Source: Bradyrhizobium sp. (GTDB lineage Bacteria > Pseudomonadota > Alphaproteobacteria > Rhizobiales > Beijerinckiaceae). Taken from it: a stretch of DNA of 64,000 bases. Both the position numbers and the translations under genes were made by a program. How positions within the stretch are numbered: position 1 is the stretch's first letter; every line of letters begins with the position of its first letter. Positions 16,862-32,664 of this stretch are shown here, one piece after another. The stretch is from the NCBI GenBank assembly GCA_004799435.1, contig SSMV01000169.1, positions 980 to 64,979 of the forward strand, read 5' to 3'. The notes beneath the pieces are model-generated. The model did no database searches. It saw only the letters and a list, made by a program, of their open reading frames with translations, and was not told where the DNA came from.

Positions 16862-18469
16862 CTAGAGGGCCGCGGGCGGCAAGGGCGGCTTGCCAAGGAT
16901 CATGTCGGCCGCCTTTTCAGCGACCATGATCGTCGGCGCATTGGTATTGCAGGACGGGACGAAGGGCATCACCGAGGCGTCGACGACGCGGATGCCCATG
17001 AGCCCACGCAGCTTGAGATCCGGCGTTACGACAGCCTCCGCGCCCGAGCCCATGGCGCAGGTTCCCGCCGGATGATGGTCGGTCTTGCAGGAGCGATAGG
17101 CGTATTGCGCCAGGTCCTCGTCGGTGTTGAGACCGTCGCCCGGCAGGCGCTCCGCCAGAACATAGGGCTTCAGCGCCGGCTGGCGCAGAATGTCGCGCGC
17201 CAGCCTAAGGCCCTTGATGGCGCATTGGCGATCGTAAGGGTCAGCCCAGTAATTGGGATCGATGAGCGGCGCCGCTTTCGGATCGTCGCTGGCGATCCGC
17301 ACCGTGCCACGCGAGCGGGGGCGCAAGAAGGCCGAGTTCAAAGTCACGCCGGGATTTTTCATCGCCGCGACCCCCGCCTCGATGCCGGAGCCGAGACCGA
17401 GGTGGAATTGAATGTCGGGCGAGCGCGCTTCTCTGTCGGCGTACCAGAAGCCGCCCGTCTCGAAGAGCGTCGAGGTCACCGGTCCGCTCTTGAACAAGAG
17501 ATATTCAAGACCTGCCCAGGCGGTGCGATGCGGGCGCGCGACGCGGTCATAGGTGTGATCGCCGGTGCATTCCGAGATCGCATAGAGATCGAGATGATCC
17601 TGCATATTCGAGCCGACGCCGGGCAGGTCGTGAACGACCGCGACTCCCGCGGCTTTCAGATCGTCGGCCGGACCGATGCCGGAAAGCTGCAGCAGGCGCG
17701 GCGAACCGATAGCGCCGCAACTGATGATGATTTCCCGGTCGGCGTTGAGGGTCGCCGTCCCCGTCCCGGAGGCGATCGTCACGCCCACCGCGCGGCCGTT
17801 GCTGACCTCGATCTTCATCGTTTGCGTATTGAGGCGAACGCTAAGATTTTTGCGACCGAGGATCGGCTTCAAAAAGGCGCTTGACGCTGATGAACGCTCG
17901 GCATTGCGCGTCGAGAGCTGATAATGGCCGATGCCGTCCTGCACGGCGCCGTTGAAATCGTCGTTGAAGGGAATTCCATATTCCTGCGCGGCGCGTAGGA
18001 AGGCGTAGCTGATTGGCGGCGGACTGACCGGATAGGAAACGCCGAGCGGACCGCCATAGCTATGGTAGGCGTTGTGCAGCTTCTGATTGTCCTCGCTGCG
18101 CTTGAAATAGGGGAGGACCTCGCGATAGCTCCAGCCCTGAGCGCCGGCGTCGCTCGCCCAGGAATCATAGTCCTTGGCGTTGCCGCGCGTATAGAGCTGC
18201 GCGTTGATCGTCGAGCCGCCGCCGATGATCTTGGCCTGCGTGTACCAGATGACGCGGCCGTCAAGATGCTTTTGCGGAACGGTGCTCCATCCCCAGCTCG
18301 CGACGCCCTTGGTCATTTTCGCGAAGCCGGCCGGCATACGAAAAAGCGGGTTCCAGTCGCCACCGCCCGCCTCGAGAAGCAGCACCTCGATCGAGGGATC
18401 GGCGCTCAGGCGGTTCGCCAGCACGCAGCCGGCGGGACCGCCGCCAACGACGATGTAATCGTAGCCCAT
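16862..18469 (-). CDS. GMC flavoprotein oxidoreductase, L-sorbose 1-dehydrogenase-like
   Basis: GGGPAG, MPAGFAKMT, GGGSTINA, PGVGSNMQDH, HPAGTCAMG and CNTNAPTIMVAEKAAD. Strongly resembles the Gluconobacter L-sorbose dehydrogenase as I remember it (MPVGFAKMT, GGAFWY, PDLQFH). Confidence 0.85.
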   Translation of the reverse strand: MGYDYIVVGGGPAGCVLANRLSADPSIEVLLLEAGGGDWNPLFRMPAGFAKMTKGVASWGWSTVPQKHLDGRVIWYTQAKIIGGGSTINAQLYTRGNAKDYDSWASDAGAQGWSYREVLPYFKRSEDNQKLHNAYHSYGGPLGVSYPVSPPPISYAFLRAAQEYGIPFNDDFNGAVQDGIGHYQLSTRNAERSSASSAFLKPILGRKNLSVRLNTQTMKIEVSNGRAVGVTIASGTGTATLNADREIIISCGAIGSPRLLQLSGIGPADDLKAAGVAVVHDLPGVGSNMQDHLDLYAISECTGDHTYDRVARPHRTAWAGLEYLLFKSGPVTSTLFETGGFWYADREARSPDIQFHLGLGSGIEAGVAAMKNPGVTLNSAFLRPRSRGTVRIASDDPKAAPLIDPNYWADPYDRQCAIKGLRLARDILRQPALKPYVLAERLPGDGLNTDEDLAQYAYRSCKTDHHPAGTCAMGSGAEAVVTPDLKLRGLMGIRVVDASVMPFVPSCNTNAPTIMVAEKAADMILGKPPLPPAAL

Positions 18470-18484
18470 CAGCCTACCTTCAGA

Positions 18485-19984
18485 TCAATGAAGCTCGGTC
18501 TTGACGATATGGTCCGCGACGCGCAGCGCCTGCGCCGCAATCGTCAGCGAGGGATTGACCGCCGCCGAGGTCGGCAGACACGAAGCGTCGACGACGAAGA
18601 GATTGGGGTGATCCCAGGCGCGGCAGTAAGGATCGAGCGGCGATGTCGCGGGATCCGCGCCGATACGAATGGTGCCGCATTGATGTGACGGCGTGCGGCG
18701 ATCGAAGGGCCGCGTCAGAACGATCGGATAGCCCGCCGCGCGCAGCCGCTCTTTGAAGGCGTCGACGAGTTTCAGATGCGTCCCCCAGTTGCTGCGCTTC
18801 CAGTCAAGATGGATTTGGCCGCCGTTCACGGTGACGCGGCTCTCCGGATTGGGAAGGTCCTCGCTCATCGCGTACCAGTCGACCGCGCGCCGCGACAGCG
18901 GCGAGAGAAGCCATTCCGGAAAACGCCGCAGGTTCGCTTTCAGGATCGGCGCGCTCACGCGGCCAAGCAACTGGATATTGCCGAGCGGCGCGCCGCCATG
19001 TCCATCATCGAAGTAGAAGTCGTTGACGCCGAGCGTCTTCTGATAGATCGAGTCATTGACGGCTCTGGGGTCGATCGCCAGCATCGCGGTCGTATTGTGA
19101 TTCATGAAATGCCGCCCGACCATGCCTGATCGATTGGCGATGCCGCCGTCGCGCGAGGAGAGCAGAAGGACGGCGGAATTGACCGCGCCGGCCGACAGGA
19201 TGACGGTCTTGGCCACTATGCGCTTGCGTTCGCCGTCGATCGTCGCTTCGACGCCGGATATTCGTTTTCCGTCGGCGTCCAGCAACAGGCGTTCGACCTT
19301 GGCGCGCTCGCGCAATTCGACATTGGGATAGCGAAACGCCTCGGCGAGCCCGCAGCTTTCGGCGTCCATCTTGCCGAAGCCGGTATCGGGAAATGCGTCC
19401 CAGGGCGTCTTCGCCCGCGCCAGCCAGCGATCGATGTCGACCCCTAGGGGCAGCGAGAATGGGTGCAGGCCGACGCGCGTCATGCGCTCGCGCACAAGCG
19501 CGATCGCCGGCTCGTCGGGAACGGGCGGAAAGGGATAGGGCGCGGAATGGTCCGGCTCAGTGGGATCGCCGCCGAGCGCGCCATGCGCGCGATAGAGTCT
19601 TTCCGCACGACCATACCAGGGTTCGAGCTCGCCATATTCGAAGGGCCAGCCCGGCGTCGCGCCGTCAGGATAGTCGACCGGCCGGAAGTCCCGCGCCCGG
19701 TAGCGCAGCAGGACCGCGCCATAGAGTTTGGTGTTTCCCCCGACGTAATAATAATTGCCGGGATTGAAAGTTACGCCGGCGCCGTCGATCCAGGATTCCT
19801 GCGGCCGGTACACGCCGCGCTGGAATATGGCGCGCGCGTCGCGCGCGTCGGGAGAATCCGGCAAGCGCGAGCCGCGCTCGAGGATGAGGATTTTCGCGCC
19901 GGAGGGCGCCAATCCGGCCGCGCAGGTCGCGCCGCCCATTCCCGATCCGACGATCAGAATGTCAACCGTCTCAGGATCTGTCAT
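18485..19984 (-). CDS. Second GMC-family flavoprotein oxidoreductase (different subfamily)
   Basis: GSGMGG, VGGNTKLYGA, GRHFMNH, SHQCGTIRIG and PTSAAVNPSLTIAAQALRVA. Confidence 0.88.
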   Translation of the reverse strand: MTDPETVDILIVGSGMGGATCAAGLAPSGAKILILERGSRLPDSPDARDARAIFQRGVYRPQESWIDGAGVTFNPGNYYYVGGNTKLYGAVLLRYRARDFRPVDYPDGATPGWPFEYGELEPWYGRAERLYRAHGALGGDPTEPDHSAPYPFPPVPDEPAIALVRERMTRVGLHPFSLPLGVDIDRWLARAKTPWDAFPDTGFGKMDAESCGLAEAFRYPNVELRERAKVERLLLDADGKRISGVEATIDGERKRIVAKTVILSAGAVNSAVLLLSSRDGGIANRSGMVGRHFMNHNTTAMLAIDPRAVNDSIYQKTLGVNDFYFDDGHGGAPLGNIQLLGRVSAPILKANLRRFPEWLLSPLSRRAVDWYAMSEDLPNPESRVTVNGGQIHLDWKRSNWGTHLKLVDAFKERLRAAGYPIVLTRPFDRRTPSHQCGTIRIGADPATSPLDPYCRAWDHPNLFVVDASCLPTSAAVNPSLTIAAQALRVADHIVKTELH

Positions 19985-20007: not shown

Positions 20008-21120
20008 CTAGACCCGGCGGCTGGTCTGCGGATCGAACAGAACCGCCTTGTCGAGATTGAATGCGAAGGAGACATTTTGTCCCGGCCGCACGTCGGCGTC
20101 GGCGCGCATCCGCGCGGTGACTTCCTTGCCGGCGATCTTCGTCACCACGAAAGTGTCCGAGCCGGCCGGCTCGACGAGATCGACATGCGAGGCGAAAGTC
20201 GCGATGTTTTTCGACTTGCGGTCGGCGCTTTCCGGGTCGCTCACCGCCTCCGGGCGAATGCCAAGAATGACGATACCGCCGTCGCGCAGCTTCGTCGCGT
20301 CGGCGCTGTTCGGCGCCGGCAGGACGATCGGTTCCGCGCCGGGGCGGTCGACCACGATCGAAGCGGCGCCGTTGGTCTTCGACACTTTCGCCTCGATGAG
20401 ATTCATCGAGGGCGAGCCCATGAAATCGGCGACGAAGAGATTGGCCGGCGTGTTGTAAATCTCGTAGGGGCTGCCGACCTGTTGCAATTCGCCGTCCTTC
20501 AGCACGGCGATGCGGGTCGCGAGGGTCATCGCCTCGATCTGGTCATGCGTGACATAGACGATCGTCGTTCCGGTCTGGTGATGAAGCCGTTTGATCTCGA
20601 TGCGCATGTCGACGCGCAATTTGGCGTCGAGGTTGGAGAGCGGTTCGTCGAACAGGAACACGCGCGGTTGGCGCACCAGAGCCCGGCCCATGGCGACGCG
20701 CTGGCGCTGGCCGCCTGACAGCTGGCTCGGCCGCCGATTGAGCAAATGCTCGATTTGCAGCGTCTTGGCGACATCGGCCACCGCCTTGTCGCGCTCCGGC
20801 TTCGGCACGCCGCGCATTTCCATGCCGAAGGCCATGTTCTGCGCGACCGACATGTTGGGATAGAGCGCGTAGGACTGGAACACCATCGCGATGTCGCGCT
20901 TCGAGGGATGGAGATCGTTGATTACGTCGCCGTCGATGCTGATCTCGCCGGAGGTGATCGATTCCAGTCCGGCGATCATGTTGAGCAGGGTCGATTTGCC
21001 ACAGCCCGACGGCCCGACGAGAACGAGGAAGCCGCCCTTCTCCAGGGTCAGATCGATGCCCTTGATAATCTCCAGCGCGCCGAAGCGCTTGCGCAGAGCG
21101 TTGATCTCAAGAAAGGCCAT
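20008..21120 (-). CDS. Sugar ABC transporter ATP-binding protein (MalK/MsmK family)
   Basis: GPSGCGKST, LSGGQRQRVAMGR, FDEPLSNLDAKLR and a C-terminal TOBE/OB region. Confidence 0.96.
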   Translation of the reverse strand: MAFLEINALRKRFGALEIIKGIDLTLEKGGFLVLVGPSGCGKSTLLNMIAGLESITSGEISIDGDVINDLHPSKRDIAMVFQSYALYPNMSVAQNMAFGMEMRGVPKPERDKAVADVAKTLQIEHLLNRRPSQLSGGQRQRVAMGRALVRQPRVFLFDEPLSNLDAKLRVDMRIEIKRLHHQTGTTIVYVTHDQIEAMTLATRIAVLKDGELQQVGSPYEIYNTPANLFVADFMGSPSMNLIEAKVSKTNGAASIVVDRPGAEPIVLPAPNSADATKLRDGGIVILGIRPEAVSDPESADRKSKNIATFASHVDLVEPAGSDTFVVTKIAGKEVTARMRADADVRPGQNVSFAFNLDKAVLFDPQTSRRV

Positions 21121-21123
21121 GAT

Positions 21124-22071
21124 CTATCCCTTCACCGCGCCGGCCATCAGACCGCGCACGAAATAACGGCCGCCGACGATATAGACGAACAGCGTCGGCC
21201 CCGCGGCGATGATCGCTGCGGCCATATTGACATTATATTCAACGATGCCCGTCGAGGTGTTGACGAGATTGTTCAAGGCGACCGTCATCGGCGAGGAGTC
21301 GCCCGCCGCAAAAGTCGAGCCGAACAGAAAGTCGTTCCAGATGTTGGTGAACTGATAGATCACCGTCACGATGATGATCGGCGTCGAATTCGGCAGAAGG
21401 ATGCGACGAAAGATCTGAAAAAAACTCGCGCCGTCGATCTGCGCCGCCTTCACCAATTCGGTCGGAAACGCCTCGTAATAGTTGCGGAAGAACAGGGTGG
21501 TGAAGCCGAGGCCATAAATGACGTGGACGATCACCAGATTGACGGTCGGATTGCCGAAGCCGAAAGCGTAGCCCGTCGCATCGATCAGCGAATTGCCGAT
21601 CTCGCCGAGATAGCCGAGGATCACCGCCATCGGAATGATGACCGACTGGAACGGGATGAAGCAAGCAAACAGCATCATGCCGAAGACCAGTTTATGGCCG
21701 GGGAAGCGCCATTTGGTCAGCACGTAGCCGTTCAACGCGCCGAGCATGGTCGAGATCGCCACCGCCGGCACGACCATTTTGATCGAATTCCAGAAATAGC
21801 CGGCGATGCCGGCCGTGTCCGAAACGCCGATGCGCGCCTCGCCCCAGGCCTGCACCCAGGGGTCGAAAGTCAGGTGATGCGGCAGGGCGAACATATTGCC
21901 GCCGGTCACTTCGTCGAGCGGCTTCAGCGATGTCATCACCATGACGACAAGCGGAATGAGATAGACGAAAGCAAAGAGGAGCAGCAGGCCGTAAATCACC
22001 ACGCGGGTGAGATTGGAGTGGCGCGCCGGCTCGCGGGCAGGCGGCGACGTGATGAGATCGGCGGCGCTCAT
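21124..22071 (-). CDS. Carbohydrate ABC transporter permease (MalG-type)
   Basis: EAA loop ELVKAAQIDGAS and IWNDFLFG. Its ATG overlaps the upstream stop (ATGA); the ORF track over-extends it. Confidence 0.93.
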   Translation of the reverse strand: MSAADLITSPPAREPARHSNLTRVVIYGLLLLFAFVYLIPLVVMVMTSLKPLDEVTGGNMFALPHHLTFDPWVQAWGEARIGVSDTAGIAGYFWNSIKMVVPAVAISTMLGALNGYVLTKWRFPGHKLVFGMMLFACFIPFQSVIIPMAVILGYLGEIGNSLIDATGYAFGFGNPTVNLVIVHVIYGLGFTTLFFRNYYEAFPTELVKAAQIDGASFFQIFRRILLPNSTPIIIVTVIYQFTNIWNDFLFGSTFAAGDSSPMTVALNNLVNTSTGIVEYNVNMAAAIIAAGPTLFVYIVGGRYFVRGLMAGAVKG

Positions 22072-23018
22072 CGACCCTTCTCCCGAAGCTCGGAATAGAG
22101 ATAGGGCACCATGATCGCGGCGATGGTCATCAACATGATGACCGCGGCGGTCGAGCCGACCGCCATCTGATTGCGGGTGAAGGTGAAGGAATACATGAAG
22201 GTCGACGGCAACTCCGCCGCGCCGCCGGGATTCTTGCCGGTGACCGAGAGCACCAGATCGTAGGATTTGATCGCCATATGGGTGAGAATGATGATGGCGG
22301 ACAGAAAGACCGGCCGCATGATTGGGATAATGATGCGCCGGTAGGTCTGAAAGGCCGACGCGCCGTCGATCTGCGCGGCTTTGATGATTTCGCCGTCGAC
22401 GCCGCGAAGCCCGGCGAGGAACATCGCCATGACGAAACCGGACGTCTGCCAGATTCCGGCGATGGCGACGCAATAGATCATCATGCGCGGATTGACGACC
22501 CAATCGAAATGAAAACTCGTCCAGCCCCAGTCGTGCATGGCTTTCTCGAGCCCGATGCCCGGATCGAGAAACAGTTTCCAGGCCGTGCCGGTCACGATGA
22601 AGGACAGCGCGAGCGGATAGAGATAGATCGGCCTCAAGATGCCTTCGCCGCGGATCTTCTGATCGAGCAGGATCGCCAGCGTCAGGCCCAGCACCAGACA
22701 GAAAAAGACATAGAGGCCGCCGAACAGGCCCATGTTGACGATCGCCGTGTACCAGTTCGACGGCGGGTCGGATTGAAAGGTCCAGTCCCACAGGCGCCGG
22801 TAGTTCAGCAAGCCGACGAGATGCGTGCTCGCGAAGGCCTTGGAATTGGTGAAAGAGAGAAAGAACGTCCACAGGTTGAAGCCGTAGACGAAGACGAGCA
22901 CCAGAATGAAAGACGGCGCCAGGACGAGCTTCGGCAAAAGATTTTGCAGGCGCTGTCGCGCCAGTCCGCGACGAGCGCGAGTCGTTTTGACCACGGTCGG
23001 CGCCACACTTACGGTCAT
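22068..23018 (-). CDS. Carbohydrate ABC transporter permease (MalF-type)
   Basis: EAA loop EIIKAAQIDGAS and IWQTSGFVMAMFLAGL. Confidence 0.93.
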   Translation of the reverse strand: MTVSVAPTVVKTTRARRGLARQRLQNLLPKLVLAPSFILVLVFVYGFNLWTFFLSFTNSKAFASTHLVGLLNYRRLWDWTFQSDPPSNWYTAIVNMGLFGGLYVFFCLVLGLTLAILLDQKIRGEGILRPIYLYPLALSFIVTGTAWKLFLDPGIGLEKAMHDWGWTSFHFDWVVNPRMMIYCVAIAGIWQTSGFVMAMFLAGLRGVDGEIIKAAQIDGASAFQTYRRIIIPIMRPVFLSAIIILTHMAIKSYDLVLSVTGKNPGGAAELPSTFMYSFTFTRNQMAVGSTAAVIMLMTIAAIMVPYLYSELREKGR

Positions 23019-23091: not shown

Positions 23092-24357
23092 TTATTTGGC
23101 GTTATTGAGCGCCTTGTCCAGCTCCGCAACGGCGGCGTCGGACGTCTTGATCTCGCCGTGGAAGAACTTCGTCACCACGTCGTGATAGGCGCCAGCGACC
23201 GCCGGCGGCTGCGCGTAGTTCTGCGCCATGGAGCCGACGAAGGTTCCGGCCGCGTTGGCGGCCTTGACGTCGGCGATGCCCTTCTTGCCGCACATGTCGA
23301 AGGCGGTGTCGGGAACATCCATACGCGCCGGCACCGAACCCTTGACGACGTTGAACGCCGACTGGAAGCTCGGGCTCATCGTCGCGTCGGCGAGCGCGAG
23401 CTGCGCGCCCTGGCGGTCGGCCGAGACCTTGAACATCGCGAACATGTCGGTGTTGTAGATCACGGAGCCGTCGGTGCCGGGGAAGCGATAGCAAAGGAAG
23501 TCTTTGCCCGCTTCCTTGTTGGCGGCGCGGAACTCGCCCTTCGCCCAGTCGCCCATCACCTGAACGAGCGCGTCGCCCTTGATCACCATGGCGGTCGCGA
23601 GGTTCCAATCGCGGCCGGCGTAGTTCGGGTCGACGTAATCGCGCAGCTTGGCGAGATTGTCGAAGGACTTCTTCATCGTGTCGGACTTCAGAGCGCCTTC
23701 GTCCAGGTCGACGAACGCCTTCTTGTAGAATTCGATGCCGCCGGTGGAGGCCACGACCGAATCGAAGAGGGTCGCTTCCTGCCACGGCTGGCCGCCGAGC
23801 GCGAGCGGGATGACCCCCGCCGCCTTCGCCTTGCCAAGCAGCGCAACGAAATCGTCGAAGTTCTTCGGCTCGGTTCCGCCGATCTTGTCCATCACGGACT
23901 TATTGATCCACACCCAGTTGACCGAATGGATGTTGACCGGAACCGCGTCCCACTTGCCGTCCGTTGTGGTGAACTTCTGCAGGGCCTGCGGAACGACCTT
24001 CGCCCAATCCTCCTTCTTGGCTAGCGACGAGATGTCGCCGAGCTTGCCGGCTTCCGCGTAGTCGACCGCGAAATAACCGAGGATCTGCGAGGCGGTGGGC
24101 GGATTGCCCGCCGCGACCATCGCCTTCAGGGCGGTCATCGCGCCTTCGCCGCCACCGCCGGCGATCGGCACGTCCTTCCAGGCGTAGCCTTCTTTGGCGA
24201 GATCCTGCTTGAGGACGTTCAGCGCGGCTGCTTCGCCGCCCGAAGTCCACCAATGCAGCATCTGGATTTCTTTGTCCTCAGCGGCAATGGCGCCTGAGGT
24301 CAGGCCGAGCGCTCCCGCGGTCATCACGCTCGCCATCAAAATCGAACGAAGTTTCAT
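23092..24357 (-). CDS. Sugar ABC transporter substrate-binding protein (glucose/mannose GtsA-like family)
   Basis: Signal peptide, QMLHWWTSGGEAAAL, VPVNIHSVNW, LALGGQPWQ, DWNLATAM and MGDWAKGEF. Confidence 0.92.
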   Translation of the reverse strand: MKLRSILMASVMTAGALGLTSGAIAAEDKEIQMLHWWTSGGEAAALNVLKQDLAKEGYAWKDVPIAGGGGEGAMTALKAMVAAGNPPTASQILGYFAVDYAEAGKLGDISSLAKKEDWAKVVPQALQKFTTTDGKWDAVPVNIHSVNWVWINKSVMDKIGGTEPKNFDDFVALLGKAKAAGVIPLALGGQPWQEATLFDSVVASTGGIEFYKKAFVDLDEGALKSDTMKKSFDNLAKLRDYVDPNYAGRDWNLATAMVIKGDALVQVMGDWAKGEFRAANKEAGKDFLCYRFPGTDGSVIYNTDMFAMFKVSADRQGAQLALADATMSPSFQSAFNVVKGSVPARMDVPDTAFDMCGKKGIADVKAANAAGTFVGSMAQNYAQPPAVAGAYHDVVTKFFHGEIKTSDAAVAELDKALNNAK

Positions 24358-24445: not shown

Positions 24446-25975
24446 TCAGGCTCCGCGTGGGAGCCACCAACTCGTTCTCGGACCGGTGTGGACGTGAAAC
24501 GTCTTTTCCTCGGTGTAGTCTTTCACCGCGTTGCGCCCCAATTCGCGGCCGACGCCCGACTGGCGATAGCCGCCGAACGGCAGTTCCGGCGTTCCGTCCA
24601 TGAATGTGTTCACCCAGATCGTGCCGGCGCGCACGCCGCGACCGACGCCGATGGCCGTGTCGACGTCGCGGCTCCAGACGCTGGCGGACAGGCCGTAGTC
24701 GGTGGCGTTGGCGAGCGCGATCGCTTCCTCGCGCGTATCGAAACTCAGCGTGACGACAACCGGGCCGAAGACTTCAGCGCGTGCGATCGCCATCGCCGCA
24801 GTCACCTTGTCGACGATTGTCGGCGCCATGAAAAACCCGCTCGACTCCAGCCTGCCGCCGCCCGCCCGAACCTGCGCGCCGTCGCGTTCGGCGGCAGTTA
24901 CGTGATCCTCGATCTTCCCGAGATGATCCGAAGTGATGATCGCGCCGACGCGCGTATCCGCATCGAGTGGGTCCCCGACCTTCACGCTCCTGGCGCGCGC
25001 CGCCAGACCTTCGATGAACTCATCGGCGATGCTCGAATGAAGAAGCAAGCGGGAGCCGGCATTGCAGCATTCGCCCGCGTTGAAATAGGCGCCGAACGTG
25101 GCGGCGTCGAGCGCCGCATCCATATCCGCGTCGGGAAAGATCAATTGCGGGTTCTTGCCGCCAAGCTCCATCGAGACTTTTTTCAATGTCGCGGCGCCCG
25201 CCGCGACGGCCGCGCGACCCACCCGCGTCGAACCGGTGAAGGAGATCATGTCGACCTCCGGATCGGCGGTGAGCGGCGCGCCGACCTCCGGCCCGTATCC
25301 CGTCACGACGTTGCAGACGCCTTCCGGCAGGCCGGCCTCGGCCAACAGGTTCATCAGATGCAGCGTCGAGGCTGACGTCATCTCGCTCGGCTTCACGACG
25401 CATGTGCAGCCTGCGGCGAGCGCGAAAGGCAGCTTTTGCGACACGATCAGAAACGGGAAATTCCACGGCGTGATGATCGAGACGACGCCGATCGGTTCCC
25501 TCAGCACCACGCCCAACCGGTCGGCGCCGAGATTTGCGTAGCTTTCGCCCGAAAGCTCTCTCGCCAATGAAGCGGCGTAACGCCAGATGTCCGCGGCGCC
25601 TTCGATTTCGCCGCGCGCCTGAGCGAGCGGCTTTCCCGACTCCAAAGTGTCGAGAATTGCGATCAGTTCACGATCGCGGTCGATCAGATCGGCCGTCTTC
25701 AGGAGAAGACGCGCGCGGTTGGACGCCGTCTCGCGCGGCCACGGTCCATTGTCAAAGGCGAGGCGCGCAGCGGCGATGGCGGCGCGCGCATCCTCCGCGC
25801 GACCGCGCGGGATGCGCGTCACGACGACCCCATGCGCCGGGCTCGATCGCTCGATCATCTCGCCGTCGCCGCCAACCGCGCGACCCGCGATGCTCATCGC
25901 GCGATCGCGCGGAAAGCGCGCGAGCGCGTCGTTCAGCTTCTTCGTGTCAACGGCGATGCGTGCGGGGGCGTTCAT
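24446..25975 (-). CDS. NAD(P)-dependent aldehyde dehydrogenase, L-sorbosone dehydrogenase (SNDH)-like
   Basis: ITPWNFP, FTGST, MELGGKN, catalytic GECCNAGSR and GGYRQSGVGRE. ERSSPAH..VTRIPR and the C-terminal GPRTSWW recall Gluconobacter SNDH. Confidence 0.9.
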   Translation of the reverse strand: MNAPARIAVDTKKLNDALARFPRDRAMSIAGRAVGGDGEMIERSSPAHGVVVTRIPRGRAEDARAAIAAARLAFDNGPWPRETASNRARLLLKTADLIDRDRELIAILDTLESGKPLAQARGEIEGAADIWRYAASLARELSGESYANLGADRLGVVLREPIGVVSIITPWNFPFLIVSQKLPFALAAGCTCVVKPSEMTSASTLHLMNLLAEAGLPEGVCNVVTGYGPEVGAPLTADPEVDMISFTGSTRVGRAAVAAGAATLKKVSMELGGKNPQLIFPDADMDAALDAATFGAYFNAGECCNAGSRLLLHSSIADEFIEGLAARARSVKVGDPLDADTRVGAIITSDHLGKIEDHVTAAERDGAQVRAGGGRLESSGFFMAPTIVDKVTAAMAIARAEVFGPVVVTLSFDTREEAIALANATDYGLSASVWSRDVDTAIGVGRGVRAGTIWVNTFMDGTPELPFGGYRQSGVGRELGRNAVKDYTEEKTFHVHTGPRTSWWLPRGA

Positions 25976-25986
25976 GGTCCTCGGTC

Positions 25987-26760
25987 CTATCGGCCGCTGA
26001 AAACTGGCGCGCGCTTGGCGCGGAAAGCCGCTCGGCCTTCAGCCAGATCTTCGGTGTAAGCCGTAAGCGCGCCTGCGAGCCCCTCGATCGGAGCATCCCG
26101 ATCCTCCCCTTCGGCCGCATTGATCATCGACTTGATCATTTGAACTGCGAGCGGCCCACGCTTGGCTATATCTGCAGCAAGAACGTGCGCGCGAGAAGCC
26201 CCTTTGCCTTTTGCCACGACTTCATCGACGAGTCCGAGCGTTAGAGCTTCCTCCGCCGTGAAGACTGCGCCGGCCAGCGCCATTCGTCTTACAATAGAGG
26301 CGCCGAAGCGACGCACGAGTCTCTGCGTGCCCGACCAGCCCGGCGCCATGCCCAATCCCGATTCAGGAAGACCGAGTTTGACGCCGCTCTCGGCGATGCG
26401 AATGTCGCCAACAGCGGCAAGTTCCAGGCCTCCGCCCAAGGCGTGACCTGCCAGCACGACGATCAACGGCACGCGAAGACGCGCCAGGGCTTCCAGAGCG
26501 CGGTGTCCGGCGCGCGTCCAGTCGCGCCACATTTCCAAAGGCGGCAGATCGCCCCAAGCCGCGATGTCGCCGCCCGCGCAAAAGGCCTTGCCCTCGCCCG
26601 ACAGGATCGCCACTCGCATGTCAGTGGACGCGTCGATCGCCCGCGCGCTTTCCAAAAGAGCGTCGATCATCGATCGGTCGAGCGCGTTCAGCTTGTCCGG
26701 TCGCTTCAGCGTCAGGAACGCGCAAGGGCCTTCGAAACGCAATTCGACAAAGGCATTCAT
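25987..26760 (-). CDS. Enoyl-CoA hydratase/isomerase (crotonase) family protein
   Basis: RPDKLNAL, AFCAGGDI, GHALGGGLEL, LGLPESGLG and WSGTQRLVR; both catalytic-type Glu positions are present. Confidence 0.92.
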   Translation of the reverse strand: MNAFVELRFEGPCAFLTLKRPDKLNALDRSMIDALLESARAIDASTDMRVAILSGEGKAFCAGGDIAAWGDLPPLEMWRDWTRAGHRALEALARLRVPLIVVLAGHALGGGLELAAVGDIRIAESGVKLGLPESGLGMAPGWSGTQRLVRRFGASIVRRMALAGAVFTAEEALTLGLVDEVVAKGKGASRAHVLAADIAKRGPLAVQMIKSMINAAEGEDRDAPIEGLAGALTAYTEDLAEGRAAFRAKRAPVFSGR

Positions 26761-28358
26761 TGCAGCGTCTCCCGCGCCGGCCGTAGCTGCAGATTGAACG
26801 GCTCAGGGTTGAACAGCGCCGCGTCCATCGTCCGGACGTGCTGGGCCACGCGAAGCGGAAATTCCGCCTGCGCGAGAATGTCGCGCTCGAGATCGACGCC
26901 AAGCGCGATCTCTATGACCGTCACGCCGTCGCGCTCCAGGCGCATAACGCAACGTTCGGTGACATAGACAATGTCCTGTCCCTGCGCGACGGCGCGCGGA
27001 CCGGAGAAGGAAATCTGCTCGACCGCTTCGACGAGCTTTTTGACTTTACCTTCCTTGACGATCGAAACCGCGCCATCGCGCACGTCGAGCTTCGCCCCGG
27101 CCGTGAAATAGCCGGAGAAGACGATCTTTTTTGCCCGCGCGGTGATGTCGACAAAACCGCCGGCGCCGGCGGTCACATGCGGACGCACGCCGAGCTTGGA
27201 CACATTGACGGAGCCGCCCTTGTCGATCTGCAGGAAGGAGAGCAACGACATATCGAAGCCGGCGCCCTGGAAGTAAGTAAATTGGTGGGGCGACTGGACA
27301 ATCGCCTCGGCGTTGGAAGCGCAACCGAACTGGAAATCGAGCAGCGGCACGCCGCCGACGGCGCCCTGTTCGATGACCCAGGTCACCGCGCCGTGGCGGC
27401 CTTCCTCAATCAGGATGCGCGGCACATTTGCAGATATGCCGAAGCCGATATTGACGGCGTCGCCGTCGCGCAGCTCCTGGGCGACGCGTCTGGCGATCAC
27501 TTTGGCAATGTCGAACTTCGGGATTTCGAACGACGACAGCGGCCGAAAGATCTCGCCGGAGATCGCCGGCTCATAGACGGTGTTGGTCGTCTGCAACTGA
27601 TCGGGCGCGACGACGATATAGTCGACCAGAACGCCCGGCACGACGACGTCATGGGGACGGATCGTGTCGGCGGCGGCGAGACGCTTAACCTGCGCAATGA
27701 CGATCCCGCCATTGTTGCGAACCGAGAGCGCCTGATCGAGCGGCCCCAGCACGCCGCCTTCATGTTCGTAGGAGAGATTGCCGCGTTCGTCGGCCGTCGT
27801 GGCGCGAATGATCGCGATATGCGGAGTGATCGTCGGAAAGAAGAGCCATTCATCGTCAGCGAAATTGACGCGCTTGACGATCGGATCGACGGCGGCCTTA
27901 GCGTTCATCGCGCAGCCCTCATGGAGCGGATCGACAAAGGTCTCCATGCCGACTTTCGTCAACACGCCCGGCCGCTTGGCGGCGGCTTCGCGATGAATGT
28001 CGAAGAGAATGCCAGAGGGGACGTTGTAGGCCGGGATCGCGTCGTCGCAGATCATCTTCCAGATCGCCGGCGGCTCGGCCGAGGACGGCCCGGACGGATA
28101 AGAGCCCGCCAGCACTCGCGCCAGGCATCCGGATTTCGCGATATGATCGACGCCCTTGACGCCCCACATGTCGCCCGCCGCGATCGGGTGCAATGTCGTG
28201 AGATCGCGCGGGTGACCGTCGGCGTCGAATCTTTCTCCGATCGCTTTAAGAACCGCGTCCGGGCAGCCAAGCGCCGAAGAGGACGAGACCGTTACGATCG
28301 CGCCATCAGGAATGAGACAAGCAGCGGCGGCGGCGGAAATGACTTTTTTCTTCGCCAT
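26757..28358 (-). CDS. Acyl-CoA:acetate/3-ketoacid CoA transferase (family I, fused alpha/beta, YdiF/Pct-like)
   Basis: AIIRATTADERGN, NGGIVIAQV, NIGFGIS, catalytic IEQGAVGG and GAGGFVDIT. Confidence 0.92.
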   Translation of the reverse strand: MAKKKVISAAAAACLIPDGAIVTVSSSSALGCPDAVLKAIGERFDADGHPRDLTTLHPIAAGDMWGVKGVDHIAKSGCLARVLAGSYPSGPSSAEPPAIWKMICDDAIPAYNVPSGILFDIHREAAAKRPGVLTKVGMETFVDPLHEGCAMNAKAAVDPIVKRVNFADDEWLFFPTITPHIAIIRATTADERGNLSYEHEGGVLGPLDQALSVRNNGGIVIAQVKRLAAADTIRPHDVVVPGVLVDYIVVAPDQLQTTNTVYEPAISGEIFRPLSSFEIPKFDIAKVIARRVAQELRDGDAVNIGFGISANVPRILIEEGRHGAVTWVIEQGAVGGVPLLDFQFGCASNAEAIVQSPHQFTYFQGAGFDMSLLSFLQIDKGGSVNVSKLGVRPHVTAGAGGFVDITARAKKIVFSGYFTAGAKLDVRDGAVSIVKEGKVKKLVEAVEQISFSGPRAVAQGQDIVYVTERCVMRLERDGVTVIEIALGVDLERDILAQAEFPLRVAQHVRTMDAALFNPEPFNLQLRPARETLQ

Positions 28359-30403
<2,045 letters not shown>

Positions 30404-30588: not shown

Positions 30589-32664
30589 TTGGCCCCGCCC
30601 GTCCCGCAATCCATCCTCGACGGATTGACCGACGTGACCATGCCTCGGCTGGCCAATGAAAGGCCGCCGGGGGATCTCGCGAGGGTCGGGCCCTATATCT
30701 TGCCCATCCAGCGCAGCGAAGCGCTTGTGCTTGGCAGCGGCGCGGCTGGCTTACGCGCCGCCGTCGAGTTGAAACGTCGCGATGTCGACGTTGTGGTCGC
30801 AAGCCAGAGCGCCTTCGGCGGAACTTCAGCCTGTTCAGGCTCCGATAAACAAACGCTGCACACCGCCAACAGCGCCGGACGCGGCGACGATTTCCAGGCG
30901 CTCGCCGATGCGCTGGGCGCCGGCGGCGCGATGGACGAGGACACCGCCTATGTCGAAGCGGTAGGTTCGGCGCGGGCGCTCGCCTCGCTTCAATTCATGG
31001 GCCTGCCGATTCCTCAGGATCGGCTGGGCGGCGTGTTGCGTTATCAAACCGACCATGACGAGATCGGCCGCGCGACAAGCTGCGGGCCTCGCACCTCGCG
31101 TCTCATGGTGCAGGCGCTGGCGCGCGAGGCGATCCGTCTTGAGATTCCGATCTTCAATCACACGACGGGCGTTCGCATTCTTGTTGCGGACGACGCGAGC
31201 CCGCGCGCAGTCGGCGTGATTGCCGCCGCGCCGGAAAAGAGAACGGCGGAAAATCCCTACGGTCTCACGGTCTTCCTTTCCGACGCCATTGTCCTTGCCG
31301 CCGGCGGCCCCGGCGAGCTCTATCGCGACAGCGTCTATCCGAAACATTGTTTCGGATCGCTCGGCCTCGCATTGGAGGCCGGCGTCGAGGCGGTCAATCT
31401 GACCGAAAGCCAATTCGGCATCGGCACGCCGCGCTATAATTTTCCGTGGAATCTGTCGGGCACTTACGTGCAATGCATGCCTTATATTTTTTCGCGCGAC
31501 GCGCGGGGCGTCGAACATAATTTTCTAACTGAGTACTACCGCACGACGCAGGAGCTCGCGTCCAACATCTTCCGCAAGGGCTATCAATGGCCGTTCCATG
31601 CCACGCGCATGCTCGACTTCCGATCGAGCCTGCTCGACCTCGCCGTCTATCGCGAGACCCGACTGCAGCGAAAAGTGTTCATGGATTTCAACCGCAACCC
31701 GCTGCCCGCGCCCGGCGACAGGCCGTTCAGCCTCGATCGTCTGGAGGACGACGTGCGCGCCTATCTAGAGAAGAGCGGTGCCCTGCTTGAGGCGCCGATC
31801 GATCGTCTGCGGAAAATGAACCCGCTCGCGATCGAGCTCTACAAGCGCTACAAATATGACATCACGCGCGATCCGCTCGAATTTGCGATCAACAATCAGC
31901 ATATGAATGGCGGCCTCGCCGTCGACGCCTGGGGCCGAACGACTCTCGCCGGCTGCTACGCCATCGGGGAGGCGGCGGGAACTCATGGCGTGACGCGGCC
32001 CGGCGGCGCCGCGCTGACCGCCGGTCAGGTCTTCGGTACGCGATGCGCCGAGCATATCGCCTCGATGCGCAAGCCTCACAAGACAGTCAATTCTGAGTCG
32101 CGCGCGATCGAAGCGGCCGTCGCGAGAATCATCGACGCCCTCAAAAGCGAGAACGGGTTGAGCGCGAAGTCGATCCGCGACGAAATCCAGGCGCGCATGA
32201 GCGATCACGCCGGAATTCTTTGCAAGCGCGATGACGTCAATCGCGCCAAGACGGCGGCGGCCGCCTTGAACCAATCGATTCGACAGCAAGGCGTCGCCTT
32301 CGCCGGCGCCAATGAGGCGCTGCGGGCGCTGCAGTGGCGGCAATCCGCTCTGGCGTCGGAAGCCATTCTCACGGCGCTGGCGTTCTATCTCGATCGCGGC
32401 GGCGGCAGCCGCGGCGCGCGCGCCGTTTGCTCGTCGAGCGGCGATCAGGTTCCCCAGGGCAGAAGCGGCCCCATCGAACAGGCCCGCTTCGTTTCGGAAC
32501 GGCCGCAGGATCGCGCCGAACAGATTCACATCCGATTGCGCGACGAAGCGTTCGTCTGCGAGCCACGGCCCATTCGCAAACGAAACCGCAACGACTCGCC
32601 GTTTTTCGAACGCGACTGGCCGGACTATCTGACGGGCGCGATCCATGATCCGCCTCCCGGATGA
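30589..32664 (+). CDS. Stand-alone FAD-binding protein of the SdhA/FrdA/NadB fold, function unknown
   Basis: LGSGAAGLRAA, VLAAGGPG, QHMNGG, GEAAGTHGVTRPGGAAL and the C-terminal GGSRGA. No Fe-S or membrane subunits are nearby. Start codon is uncertain. Confidence 0.82.
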   Translation: MAPPVPQSILDGLTDVTMPRLANERPPGDLARVGPYILPIQRSEALVLGSGAAGLRAAVELKRRDVDVVVASQSAFGGTSACSGSDKQTLHTANSAGRGDDFQALADALGAGGAMDEDTAYVEAVGSARALASLQFMGLPIPQDRLGGVLRYQTDHDEIGRATSCGPRTSRLMVQALAREAIRLEIPIFNHTTGVRILVADDASPRAVGVIAAAPEKRTAENPYGLTVFLSDAIVLAAGGPGELYRDSVYPKHCFGSLGLALEAGVEAVNLTESQFGIGTPRYNFPWNLSGTYVQCMPYIFSRDARGVEHNFLTEYYRTTQELASNIFRKGYQWPFHATRMLDFRSSLLDLAVYRETRLQRKVFMDFNRNPLPAPGDRPFSLDRLEDDVRAYLEKSGALLEAPIDRLRKMNPLAIELYKRYKYDITRDPLEFAINNQHMNGGLAVDAWGRTTLAGCYAIGEAAGTHGVTRPGGAALTAGQVFGTRCAEHIASMRKPHKTVNSESRAIEAAVARIIDALKSENGLSAKSIRDEIQARMSDHAGILCKRDDVNRAKTAAAALNQSIRQQGVAFAGANEALRALQWRQSALASEAILTALAFYLDRGGGSRGARAVCSSSGDQVPQGRSGPIEQARFVSERPQDRAEQIHIRLRDEAFVCEPRPIRKRNRNDSPFFERDWPDYLTGAIHDPPPG

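Follow-up and report, generated by a model that had tools for sequence, protein, structure and literature searches.

In a stretch of 64,000 nucleotides from Bradyrhizobium sp. (contig SSMV01000169.1 of assembly GCA_004799435.1; hereafter "the window"), a gene for a family I coenzyme A (CoA)-transferase and a gene for a crotonase lie side by side in a sugar operon, immediately behind an ortholog of 1,5-anhydro-D-fructose reductase (AFR). Judged from their sequences and surroundings, the two enzymes may work together to dehydrate a hydroxy-acid of sugar origin with recycling of CoA, in an operon for anhydro-hexoses or anhydro-hexitols, yielding a 2-keto-3-deoxy product. We favor this reading tentatively and place it a little short of probable. 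A preliminary description of the window had located the two genes, named their families and placed them in a sugar operon, and the present analysis, which finds both genes on the minus strand, agrees on all three counts (PF01144 and TIGR02428 for the CoA-transferase, PF00378 for the crotonase; a LacI repressor, an AFR-type reductase, a CUT1 transporter and a MalK-type ATPase on the same strand).

The CoA-transferase and the crotonase

The CoA-transferase matches PF01144 over residues 9-250 (87.5 bits) and the alpha-subunit family TIGR02429 over residues 1-251, and its C-terminal half matches the pcaJ/scoB-type beta-subunit family TIGR02428 over residues 286-491. The alpha and beta CoA_trans halves are thus both carried on one chain, as in the fused YdiF/Pct subgroup, which we recognized by the presence of both halves on a single chain of about 520-540 aa. 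The nearest solved structure is that of E. coli YdiF (PDB 2AHU, E 3e-94, residues 5-518), a fused family I enzyme in which a glutamyl-CoA intermediate has reportedly been trapped. E330, within VIEQGAVGG, falls on the ETG of YdiF in the alignment, in keeping with the E-x-G motif, and is invariant across seven orthologs of 63-100% identity. It is the glutamate of the "IEQG" segment that the preliminary description had singled out, and its alignment and conservation point to the same residue.

Databases name this protein "propionate CoA-transferase" or "acyl CoA:acetate/3-ketoacid CoA transferase", and it reaches 332.7 bits against the staphylococcal FadX equivalog (NF052271), for which the cut-off is 750. 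No second copy was found in the source genome at E<=1e-50. The clade to which it belongs is 60-92% identical internally, compared with 37-42% identity to YdiF-like paralogs of the same genomes. Codon bias (G+C content at third codon positions, GC3, about 0.78) marks both the CoA-transferase gene and the crotonase gene as real.

The best structural match of the crotonase is the 3-hydroxypropionyl-CoA dehydratase of Metallosphaera sedula (Ms3HPCD; PDB 5ZAI, E 2.7e-49). Its top matches are all hydratases, it is no nearer to AcuH (5XZD, 4.9e-32) than to numerous other hydratases, and MenB (2IEX) follows at 4.9e-23. We mapped the acyl pocket by alignment to 5ZAI and read it against the structure paper of that enzyme (PMC6048173). 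The oxyanion-hole positions G64 (Ala65 of Ms3HPCD) and G110 are present, as are the catalytic residues E113 and E133 (Glu113 and Glu133 of Ms3HPCD, Glu144 and Glu164 of the rat enzyme), which are invariant in 83 orthologs. The protein is therefore predicted to be a canonical two-glutamate hydratase/dehydratase, and the catalytic machinery of both the CoA-transferase and the crotonase appears to be intact and canonical.

In Ms3HPCD, the residues F70, F81, Y142 and W232 form a pocket for up to 4 carbons, the bottom of which is closed by F81 and W232 (PMC6048173). The equivalent positions in the crotonase are W69, W81, W142 and G230; the set of four aromatics that closes the C3-C4 pocket in Ms3HPCD-type enzymes is not retained. 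Trp69, Trp81 and Trp142 are invariant in all 83 orthologs and paralogs collected, and position 230 holds only Ser, Gly or Thr. The triad is kept in the crotonase of an E. coli island at 37% identity, and none of the other crotonases of the source genome has it. W69/W81/W142 is a signature particular to this crotonase family. Sugar binding typically involves pockets rich in tryptophan, and the triad may line such a pocket; the overall likeness to short-chain hydratases would equally allow a small substrate.

The operon, its operator and its conservation

The Gfo/Idh/MocA neighbor of the CoA-transferase matches the AFR of Sinorhizobium morelense (2GLX) with E 1.6e-137 and about 64% identity over 328 residues, and that of S. 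meliloti (4KOA) with E 8.9e-134. Because these matches are full-length and the next structure reaches only 9e-31, we regard it as an AFR ortholog and not as a generic member of its superfamily. We corrected its start to the ATG at 29369, which overlaps the lacI stop. The predicted protein keeps the features expected of an AFR, namely the GASTIA dinucleotide motif, the EKP lysine and DITVHD (D-x-x-x-H), and S. meliloti records name the operon neighbor of the CoA-transferase "1,5-anhydro-D-fructose reductase". Outside the genus, the AFR proteins nearest to this one (same family, 72-73% identity; G142:C129:13160-14149 and G645:C1:88583-89569, the latter being locus L112) are found in genomes without this CoA-transferase clade. 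AFR-type reductases therefore also serve without the CoA module.

The operon runs in the order LacI, AFR, CoA-transferase, crotonase, aldehyde dehydrogenase (ALDH), CUT1 substrate-binding protein, two permeases, MalK-type ATPase and two GMC proteins; the genes, which extend from 30403 down to 16862, are closely spaced and all encoded by the minus strand (Table 1). The lacI and afr genes overlap at an ATGA, the afr TAG abuts the ATG of the CoA-transferase gene, and the CoA-transferase and crotonase genes again overlap at an ATGA; the gap between crotonase and ALDH is 11 nt and contains GAGGA, and the two permease genes overlap as ATGA. Judging from these junctions, the CoA-transferase and the crotonase appear to be translationally coupled within a LacI-controlled operon.

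Table 1. Predicted features of the operon and of its operator region (positions in the window).
Feature	Position	Strand	Description
GMC535, choline-dehydrogenase-like GMC oxidoreductase	16862-18469	-	535 aa; PRK02106 556 bits, under the cut-off of 605
GMC499, GMC-type flavoprotein	18485-19984	-	499 aa; cytoplasmic (no signal peptide, no Cys cluster)
MalK/UgpC-type ATP-binding cassette (ABC) ATPase	20008-21120	-	PF00005, OB_MalK, TOBE_2
ABC permease 2	21124-22071	-	PF00528; start overlaps stop of permease 1
ABC permease 1	22068-23018	-	GC3 profile; ortholog 89% identical in relative locus L001
CUT1 sugar ABC substrate-binding protein	23092-24357	-	PF01547; signal peptide
NAD(P)-dependent ALDH	24446-25975	-	509 aa; PF00171 546.7 bits; BADH-like 460 bits
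Crotonase-fold enoyl-CoA hydratase/dehydratase	25987-26760	-	257 aa; PF00378 150.5 bits
Fused family I CoA-transferase (YdiF/Pct type)	26757-28358	-	533 aa; predicted catalytic Glu330 in VIEQG
AFR ortholog	28359-29369	-	336 aa; directly upstream of the CoA-transferase
LacI-family repressor	29366-30403	-	first operon gene; PF00356 and Peripla_BP_3
Operator-like palindrome TTGGATCGCTCCAA	30445-30458		lacI/flavoprotein intergenic region
Second operator-like palindrome TTGGAACGTGCTAA	30521-30534		lacI/flavoprotein intergenic region
SdhA/NadB/TfrA-like FAD flavoprotein	30640-32664	+	about 674 aa from ATG 30640; PF00890; divergent to lacI

At 274.8 bits against TIGR01722, for which the cut-off is 448.5, the ALDH is not of the CoA-acylating methylmalonate-semialdehyde dehydrogenase (MMSDH) type, and roughly half of the operons in the genus do without it (L001, L026-L029, L033, L035 and L036). 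Choline oxidase-type enzymes can take an alcohol all the way to the acid, and the ALDH may be dispensable or replaced, possibly because a choline-oxidase-like GMC protein oxidizes through to the acid. Of the two GMC proteins, GMC499 is a distant relative of the catalytic subunits of FAD-glucose and fructose dehydrogenases and is a candidate to oxidize a secondary ring alcohol of the sugar. GMC535 matches choline dehydrogenase (9LQ0, 3e-105) and the chloramphenicol-inactivating oxidoreductase 8B7S (1.3e-100), which oxidizes a primary alcohol to an acid, and is a candidate oxidase of the C6 primary alcohol. With the exception of the loci in Bosea and E. coli, a homolog of GMC535 accompanied the CoA-transferase and crotonase genes in all contexts examined. 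Elsewhere in the source genome, an Eda-like aldolase gene (139 bits, just below cut-off) is followed by a gene for a KdgK-like PfkB kinase (C183:8470-17691). Genes for a dehydratase-like member of the enolase superfamily and for a CUT1 binding protein are close to this pair, and a glycerate kinase is encoded at C183:43584-44831.

The LacI-type palindrome TTGGAACGTTCCAA has two matches in the window at up to three mismatches, both of them between lacI and the divergent flavoprotein gene. Across the 3.5-Mb genome there are five matches at up to two mismatches, including both of these sites, and the genome-wide scan gave no further convincing regulon member. Two copies precede lacI in nearly all related loci that span this region, including those of Bosea, which lack AFR. 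Extra perfect sites lie within or behind the operon in two relatives (L047:18750, L069:20638) and suggest a second regulated promoter there.

Because its operator sites are shared with lacI and recur in related loci, the flavoprotein is probably co-regulated with the operon. All of its NCBIfam matches are well below their cut-offs. Its position is conserved within the genus, where it is always kept, and it is 62-64% identical to a gene within the AFR operons of Rhizobium CCGE531 and BG6 (L110:4420-6501 and L111:7983-10064) and 55% identical to the flavoprotein of the E. coli island that encodes a CoA-transferase and crotonase. A homolog at 36% identity was observed in a Subdoligranulum record.

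A pattern search with one genome per species gave 80 loci whose CoA-transferase shares 70-88% identity with the window copy, from uncultured relatives, Bosea, Labrys, Microvirga, Sinorhizobium, Ensifer, Rhizobium, Mesorhizobium, Phyllobacterium, Shinella, Brucella/Ochrobactrum and others. Gene content was counted in the 65 loci with full flanks. The crotonase directly follows the CoA-transferase in 63 of them, LacI is present in 64 and the AFR ortholog in 55, followed by GMC499 (51), the binding protein (47), the ALDH (45) and DUF993 (43). The numbers for a short-chain dehydrogenase/reductase (SDR; 36), GMC535 (31) and glycerate kinase (2) are all undercounts, as the operon extends past the flank. 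Among 401 genomes sampled evenly across the order Hyphomicrobiales, 42 have an AFR ortholog, and in 34 of these the CoA-transferase is adjacent (within 500 bp of AFR). LacI, operator, CoA-transferase and crotonase appear to be the conserved core of these loci. The pair is tied to sugar genes by a conserved link, which upholds the earlier view that it does not serve ordinary fatty-acid oxidation.

Other genes near the pair vary among relatives. For example, the chromosomal operon of S. meliloti has DUF993 divergent from LacI, AFR, CoA-transferase, crotonase, ALDH, an ABC transporter, a GMC protein, an SDR named "3-ketoacyl-ACP reductase", a second GMC protein and glycerate kinase. A paralogous set on pSymA comprises a CUT2 sugar ABC transporter, a zinc alcohol dehydrogenase, ALDH and GMC, then an aldo-keto reductase divergent from CoA-transferase, crotonase and glycerate kinase, and then an acyl-CoA dehydrogenase (ACAD), SDR, DUF993, a TIM-barrel isomerase and the beta and alpha subunits of an electron-transfer flavoprotein (ETF); the order ALDH-GMC-CoA-transferase-crotonase is seen both here and in loci L021-L024. 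In Bosea, ACAD and DUF993 are divergent from LacI, CoA-transferase, crotonase, SDR, an amino-acid-type ABC transporter and an AGE-family epimerase, and AFR is absent. A plasmid of Rhizobium sp. CCGE531 (L110:2340-7699) carries an AFR-type operon that lacks the SDR and includes the flavoprotein, a KdgK-like kinase, a class I fructose-bisphosphate aldolase and an extra Gfo/Idh/MocA protein, for which the best family match is levoglucosan dehydrogenase (306 bits, under cut-off). The E. coli island, flanked by ytfB and rplI, carries TetR divergent from SDR, a TIM isomerase, crotonase, CoA-transferase, flavoprotein and a TRAP transporter.

In many Rhizobiaceae, an open reading frame of 381 aa without a Pfam or NCBIfam match lies between the ALDH and binding-protein genes (in Sinorhizobium chiapasense, L065:13925-15070). 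The sole structure for DUF993, 4DNH, is unannotated. Neither the SDR nor the DUF993 of the relatives' clusters was found in the source genome, and the source genus has lost, or never had, both. Thiolase is absent from every cluster seen. The preliminary description had argued that the crotonase has no dehydrogenase before it, as ACAD, 3-hydroxyacyl-CoA dehydrogenase and thiolase are all missing. This remains correct within the window; the wider premise is weakened by the flavoprotein nearby, which shares the operator region, and by the SDR, or ACAD with ETF, of related clusters.

Possible reactions of the pair

Several known systems are similar to the pair in part. In the Halomonas genes dddC-dddA-acuN-acuK, those for the AcuN CoA-transferase and the AcuK crotonase are co-transcribed with genes for a GMC-type alcohol dehydrogenase and an ALDH, and the two enzymes amount to a net hydratase on the free acid (PMC13104084, PMC5651017). 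The likeness lies in the gene arrangement, with adjacent CoA-transferase and crotonase genes accompanied by GMC and ALDH. The Halomonas genes act on acrylate and 3-hydroxypropionate (3-HP) in a dimethylsulfoniopropionate context with LysR/TetR regulators, whereas the window operon has LacI, a sugar ABC transporter, AFR and a non-MMSDH ALDH. In E. coli, CaiB and CaiD shuttle CoA between substrate and product, and the crotonase dehydrates carnitine without ATP. The paralogous pSymA cluster, with its added ACAD and ETF, is reminiscent of the cai/fix system (CaiA, FixAB); CaiB, however, is a family III enzyme for a quaternary amine acid, whereas the CoA-transferase here belongs to family I and would act on a sugar acid. 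On the analogy of AcuN/AcuK and CaiB/CaiD, a CoA-recycling dehydratase appears to be the most economical reading.

The individual enzymes have relatives of their own. The CoA-transferase shares with YdiF and Clostridium propionicum Pct the fused alpha/beta organization, a length of about 530 aa and the aligned catalytic Glu, but is only about 40% identical to them and belongs to a separate clade tied to sugar-type clusters. The crotonase has the same catalytic tetrad as Ms3HPCD, a tight alpha3 region and aromatic pocket residues, but lacks the tunnel-closing residue (G230 versus W232). The S. morelense AFR pathway (EC 1.1.1.292) is related through its 64% identical AFR and through S. meliloti, in which the AFR gene shares an operon with CoA-transferase and crotonase; the published route leads by C-1 oxygenation to mannose (PMC12441222), whereas the window operon has CoA enzymes. 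The deoxyribonate cluster of Klebsiella michiganensis involves a sugar-acid CoA ester, a Pct-like family I CoA-transferase, an SDR named 3-oxoacyl-ACP reductase and a glycerate kinase, on evidence that is genetic only (Price et al., 2019, PMC6365646). S. meliloti versions of the operon share the Pct-like CoA-transferase, the SDR and the glycerate kinase. Unlike the window pair, the K. michiganensis cluster works with a CoA-synthetase and a thiolase and lacks a crotonase.

As a CoA-recycling dehydratase, the pair would fit an operon for the aerobic use of 1,5-anhydro-D-fructose, -mannitol and -glucitol. The CUT1 transporter would bring in the anhydro-sugar, GMC499 and AFR would set the configuration at C2 (glucitol to anhydrofructose to anhydromannitol), and GMC535, aided by the ALDH where present, would convert the C6 primary alcohol to a carboxylate. 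The CoA-transferase would load this acid onto CoA by way of a Glu330 thioester. The thioester would acidify the alpha hydrogen, and the two-glutamate crotonase would eliminate the beta-hydroxyl to give a 2-oxo-3-deoxy acid or a cyclic enol-ether precursor, with CoA passed to the next substrate and no ATP used. The product could then undergo cleavage of the 2-keto-3-deoxygluconate (KDG) type, for which the source genome has KdgK and Eda candidates. For the AFR product 1,5-anhydro-D-mannitol, the acid would be 2,6-anhydro-D-mannonate and its dehydration would lead to a cyclic enol ether, the hydrate of which would be KDG. The KdgK-like kinase and the levoglucosan-dehydrogenase-like protein of CCGE531, the glycerate kinase and DUF993 of S. 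meliloti and the eda/kdgK-like pair of the source genome are hints of a KDG-type product.

The sugar-acid-CoA dehydratase that the preliminary description had proposed is therefore plausible, in that the canonical two-glutamate site, AFR, GMC535, the ALDH and the KdgK-like and glycerate kinases all fit it. The sequences establish what the genes encode, their active-site residues, the coupling and conservation of the operon, its shared operator and the orthology of AFR. From these we infer which substrate is used, in which direction the crotonase works, how CoA is cycled and how the ring is opened, and the specific proposals of 2,6-anhydro-mannonyl-CoA as substrate and of ether-ring opening are purely conjectural. 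A more ambitious version, which we consider doubtful, is a complete aerobic CoA-dependent route that would open the ether ring of 1,5-anhydro-hexitols and replace or parallel the P450-like C-1 oxygenase step. After C6 oxidation to 2,6-anhydro-D-mannonate and formation of the thioester by the CoA-transferase, the Trp-lined crotonase would remove the C3 hydroxyl to leave a cyclic enol ether ("KDG-2-ene"), analogous to the sialic-acid glycal 2,3-didehydro-2-deoxy-N-acetylneuraminic acid (DANA). Hydration of this enol ether, either spontaneous or with help from the flavoprotein or from SDR and DUF993, would then supply KDG for the Entner-Doudoroff pathway.

Several points weigh against a sugar-acid dehydratase and its ring-opening extension. 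In the sample of 401 genomes, 25 of the 59 CoA-transferase loci are not beside AFR and 8 of the 42 AFR orthologs have no adjacent CoA-transferase, and the Sinorhizobium anhydrofructose route given in a review has no CoA step (PMC12441222). The crotonase is most like short-chain (C3-C4) hydratases, and its tight alpha3 helix region is better suited to a small acyl group than to a pyranose ring. Addition of water at the C-alpha of an alpha-alkoxy-enoyl thioester would be abnormal for a crotonase, and ring opening would require another catalyst. The SDR, DUF993, TIM-barrel isomerase, ACAD with ETF and flavoprotein that are found near the pair elsewhere have no necessary role in the dehydratase scheme. 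More generally, the function of the CoA-transferase/crotonase clade is predicted from sequence and context.

The pair could instead work in the hydrating direction, as in beta-oxidation, which we think unlikely. The flavoprotein (ACAD and ETF in paralogous clusters) would desaturate an acyl-CoA or acid and the crotonase would add water; in relatives, the SDR would oxidize the 3-hydroxyl before carbon-carbon cleavage to a glyceryl unit. Such a role would be in line with a flavoprotein that shares the operator region, lies within the operon in CCGE531 and directly follows the CoA-transferase in the E. coli island, and with the ACAD of the pSymA and Bosea clusters, the former of which adds ETF, SDR and glycerate kinase next to the pair. 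The deoxyribonyl-CoA route of K. michiganensis likewise ends in glyceryl-CoA and glycerate kinase (PMC6365646). However, the chromosomal afr operon of S. meliloti has neither the flavoprotein nor an ACAD, none of the clusters seen contains a thiolase, and the SDR and DUF993 are missing from the source genome. Moreover, a polyhydroxy acid already carries a beta-hydroxyl, so desaturation and hydration would be needless. We give still less credence to a small C3-C4 substrate, either a fragment from later in the pathway (3-hydroxypropionyl-, glyceryl- or lactoyl-CoA) or acrylate/3-HP as in AcuN/AcuK. The best structural relative of the crotonase is indeed a 3-hydroxypropionyl-CoA dehydratase and its pocket is aromatic and compact, the order ALDH-GMC-CoA-transferase-crotonase mirrors dddC-dddA-acuN-acuK, and on pSymA a glycerate kinase directly follows the crotonase. 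Yet Gly, Ser or Thr takes the place of the tunnel-closing Trp232 of Ms3HPCD throughout the family, the crotonase is no closer to AcuH than to other hydratases, and no path leading from an anhydro-hexose to 3-HP is apparent. Acrylate metabolism would also leave the LacI repressor, the sugar ABC transporter and the coupling to AFR unexplained. We down-weighted the acrylate/3-HP module, which had been raised by the 5ZAI match and the GMC and ALDH genes, because the ALDH is not of the MMSDH/DddC type and the context is that of sugars.

The preliminary description had further allowed for a crotonase-fold hydrolase, and a BadI/MenB-like or thioesterase-like enzyme could in principle cleave the ether or a ring C-C bond. 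BadI opens alicyclic acyl-CoAs, and an anhydro-aldonyl-CoA is a tetrahydropyran-2-carboxyl-CoA, formally analogous to BadI substrates. Nevertheless, we judge this very improbable: both hydratase glutamates are invariant, the top matches are hydratases with MenB far below the dehydratase 5ZAI, and C-C cleavage would leave the ether intact. That an ordinary short-chain fatty-acid CoA-transferase and crotonase are merely hitch-hiking in a sugar operon to which they are functionally unconnected would agree with their database names and generic family matches and is scarcely credible given the tight translational coupling, the arrangement kept across many genera, the separate clade of the CoA-transferase and the pocket signature specific to the family. 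PEG-type ether oxidation, a furoyl-CoA (HmfE-like) pathway and BadI-type ring cleavage were also considered and rejected, as the required partners or catalytic residues are lacking.

Significance for anhydro-sugar catabolism

In the aerobic route of the Rhizobiaceae, AFR yields anhydromannitol, which is hydroxylated at C1 by an unidentified P450-like enzyme to give mannose (PMC12441222). The step after AFR has been without an assigned enzyme since 2006, and this 2025 review still describes it as "unidentified P450-like"; according to the same review, no analogous oxidative route has been described for 1,5-anhydroglucitol. Searches of the full-text literature returned nothing relevant that joins anhydrofructose or anhydroglucitol to a CoA-transferase, an enoyl-CoA hydratase or a gene cluster, and the CoA-dependent part of the AFR operon thus appears to be undescribed in the searchable literature. 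In the S. meliloti afr operon (L106:17061-18293), the afr gene is presumably SMc04400. If so, smc04396 would be the binding protein of the operon, and anhydro-sugars derived from dextrin would be its inducer. In PMC4960864 (citing Mauchline 2006), smc04396 is described as induced by dextrin.

A probiotic to lower intestinal 1,5-anhydroglucitol in the neutropenia of glycogen storage disease Ib and G6PC3 deficiency still lacks an enzyme that metabolizes 1,5-anhydroglucitol aerobically (PMC12441222). If the dehydratase reading is true, CoA-thioester-assisted dehydration of sugar acids would be a third solution beside the enolase-superfamily and IlvD/Edd dehydratases. A CoA-transferase-crotonase module with the identical Trp triad also occurs in uncharacterized E. 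coli islands, and the ring-opening route, if true, would define a large family of such modules with the three tryptophans, which extends to E. coli accessory islands with TRAP transporters. The AFR-linked CoA-transferase and crotonase, conserved across genera of the Hyphomicrobiales, offer concrete candidate genes and a testable mechanism, and a question open since 2006 becomes directly testable in laboratory rhizobia.

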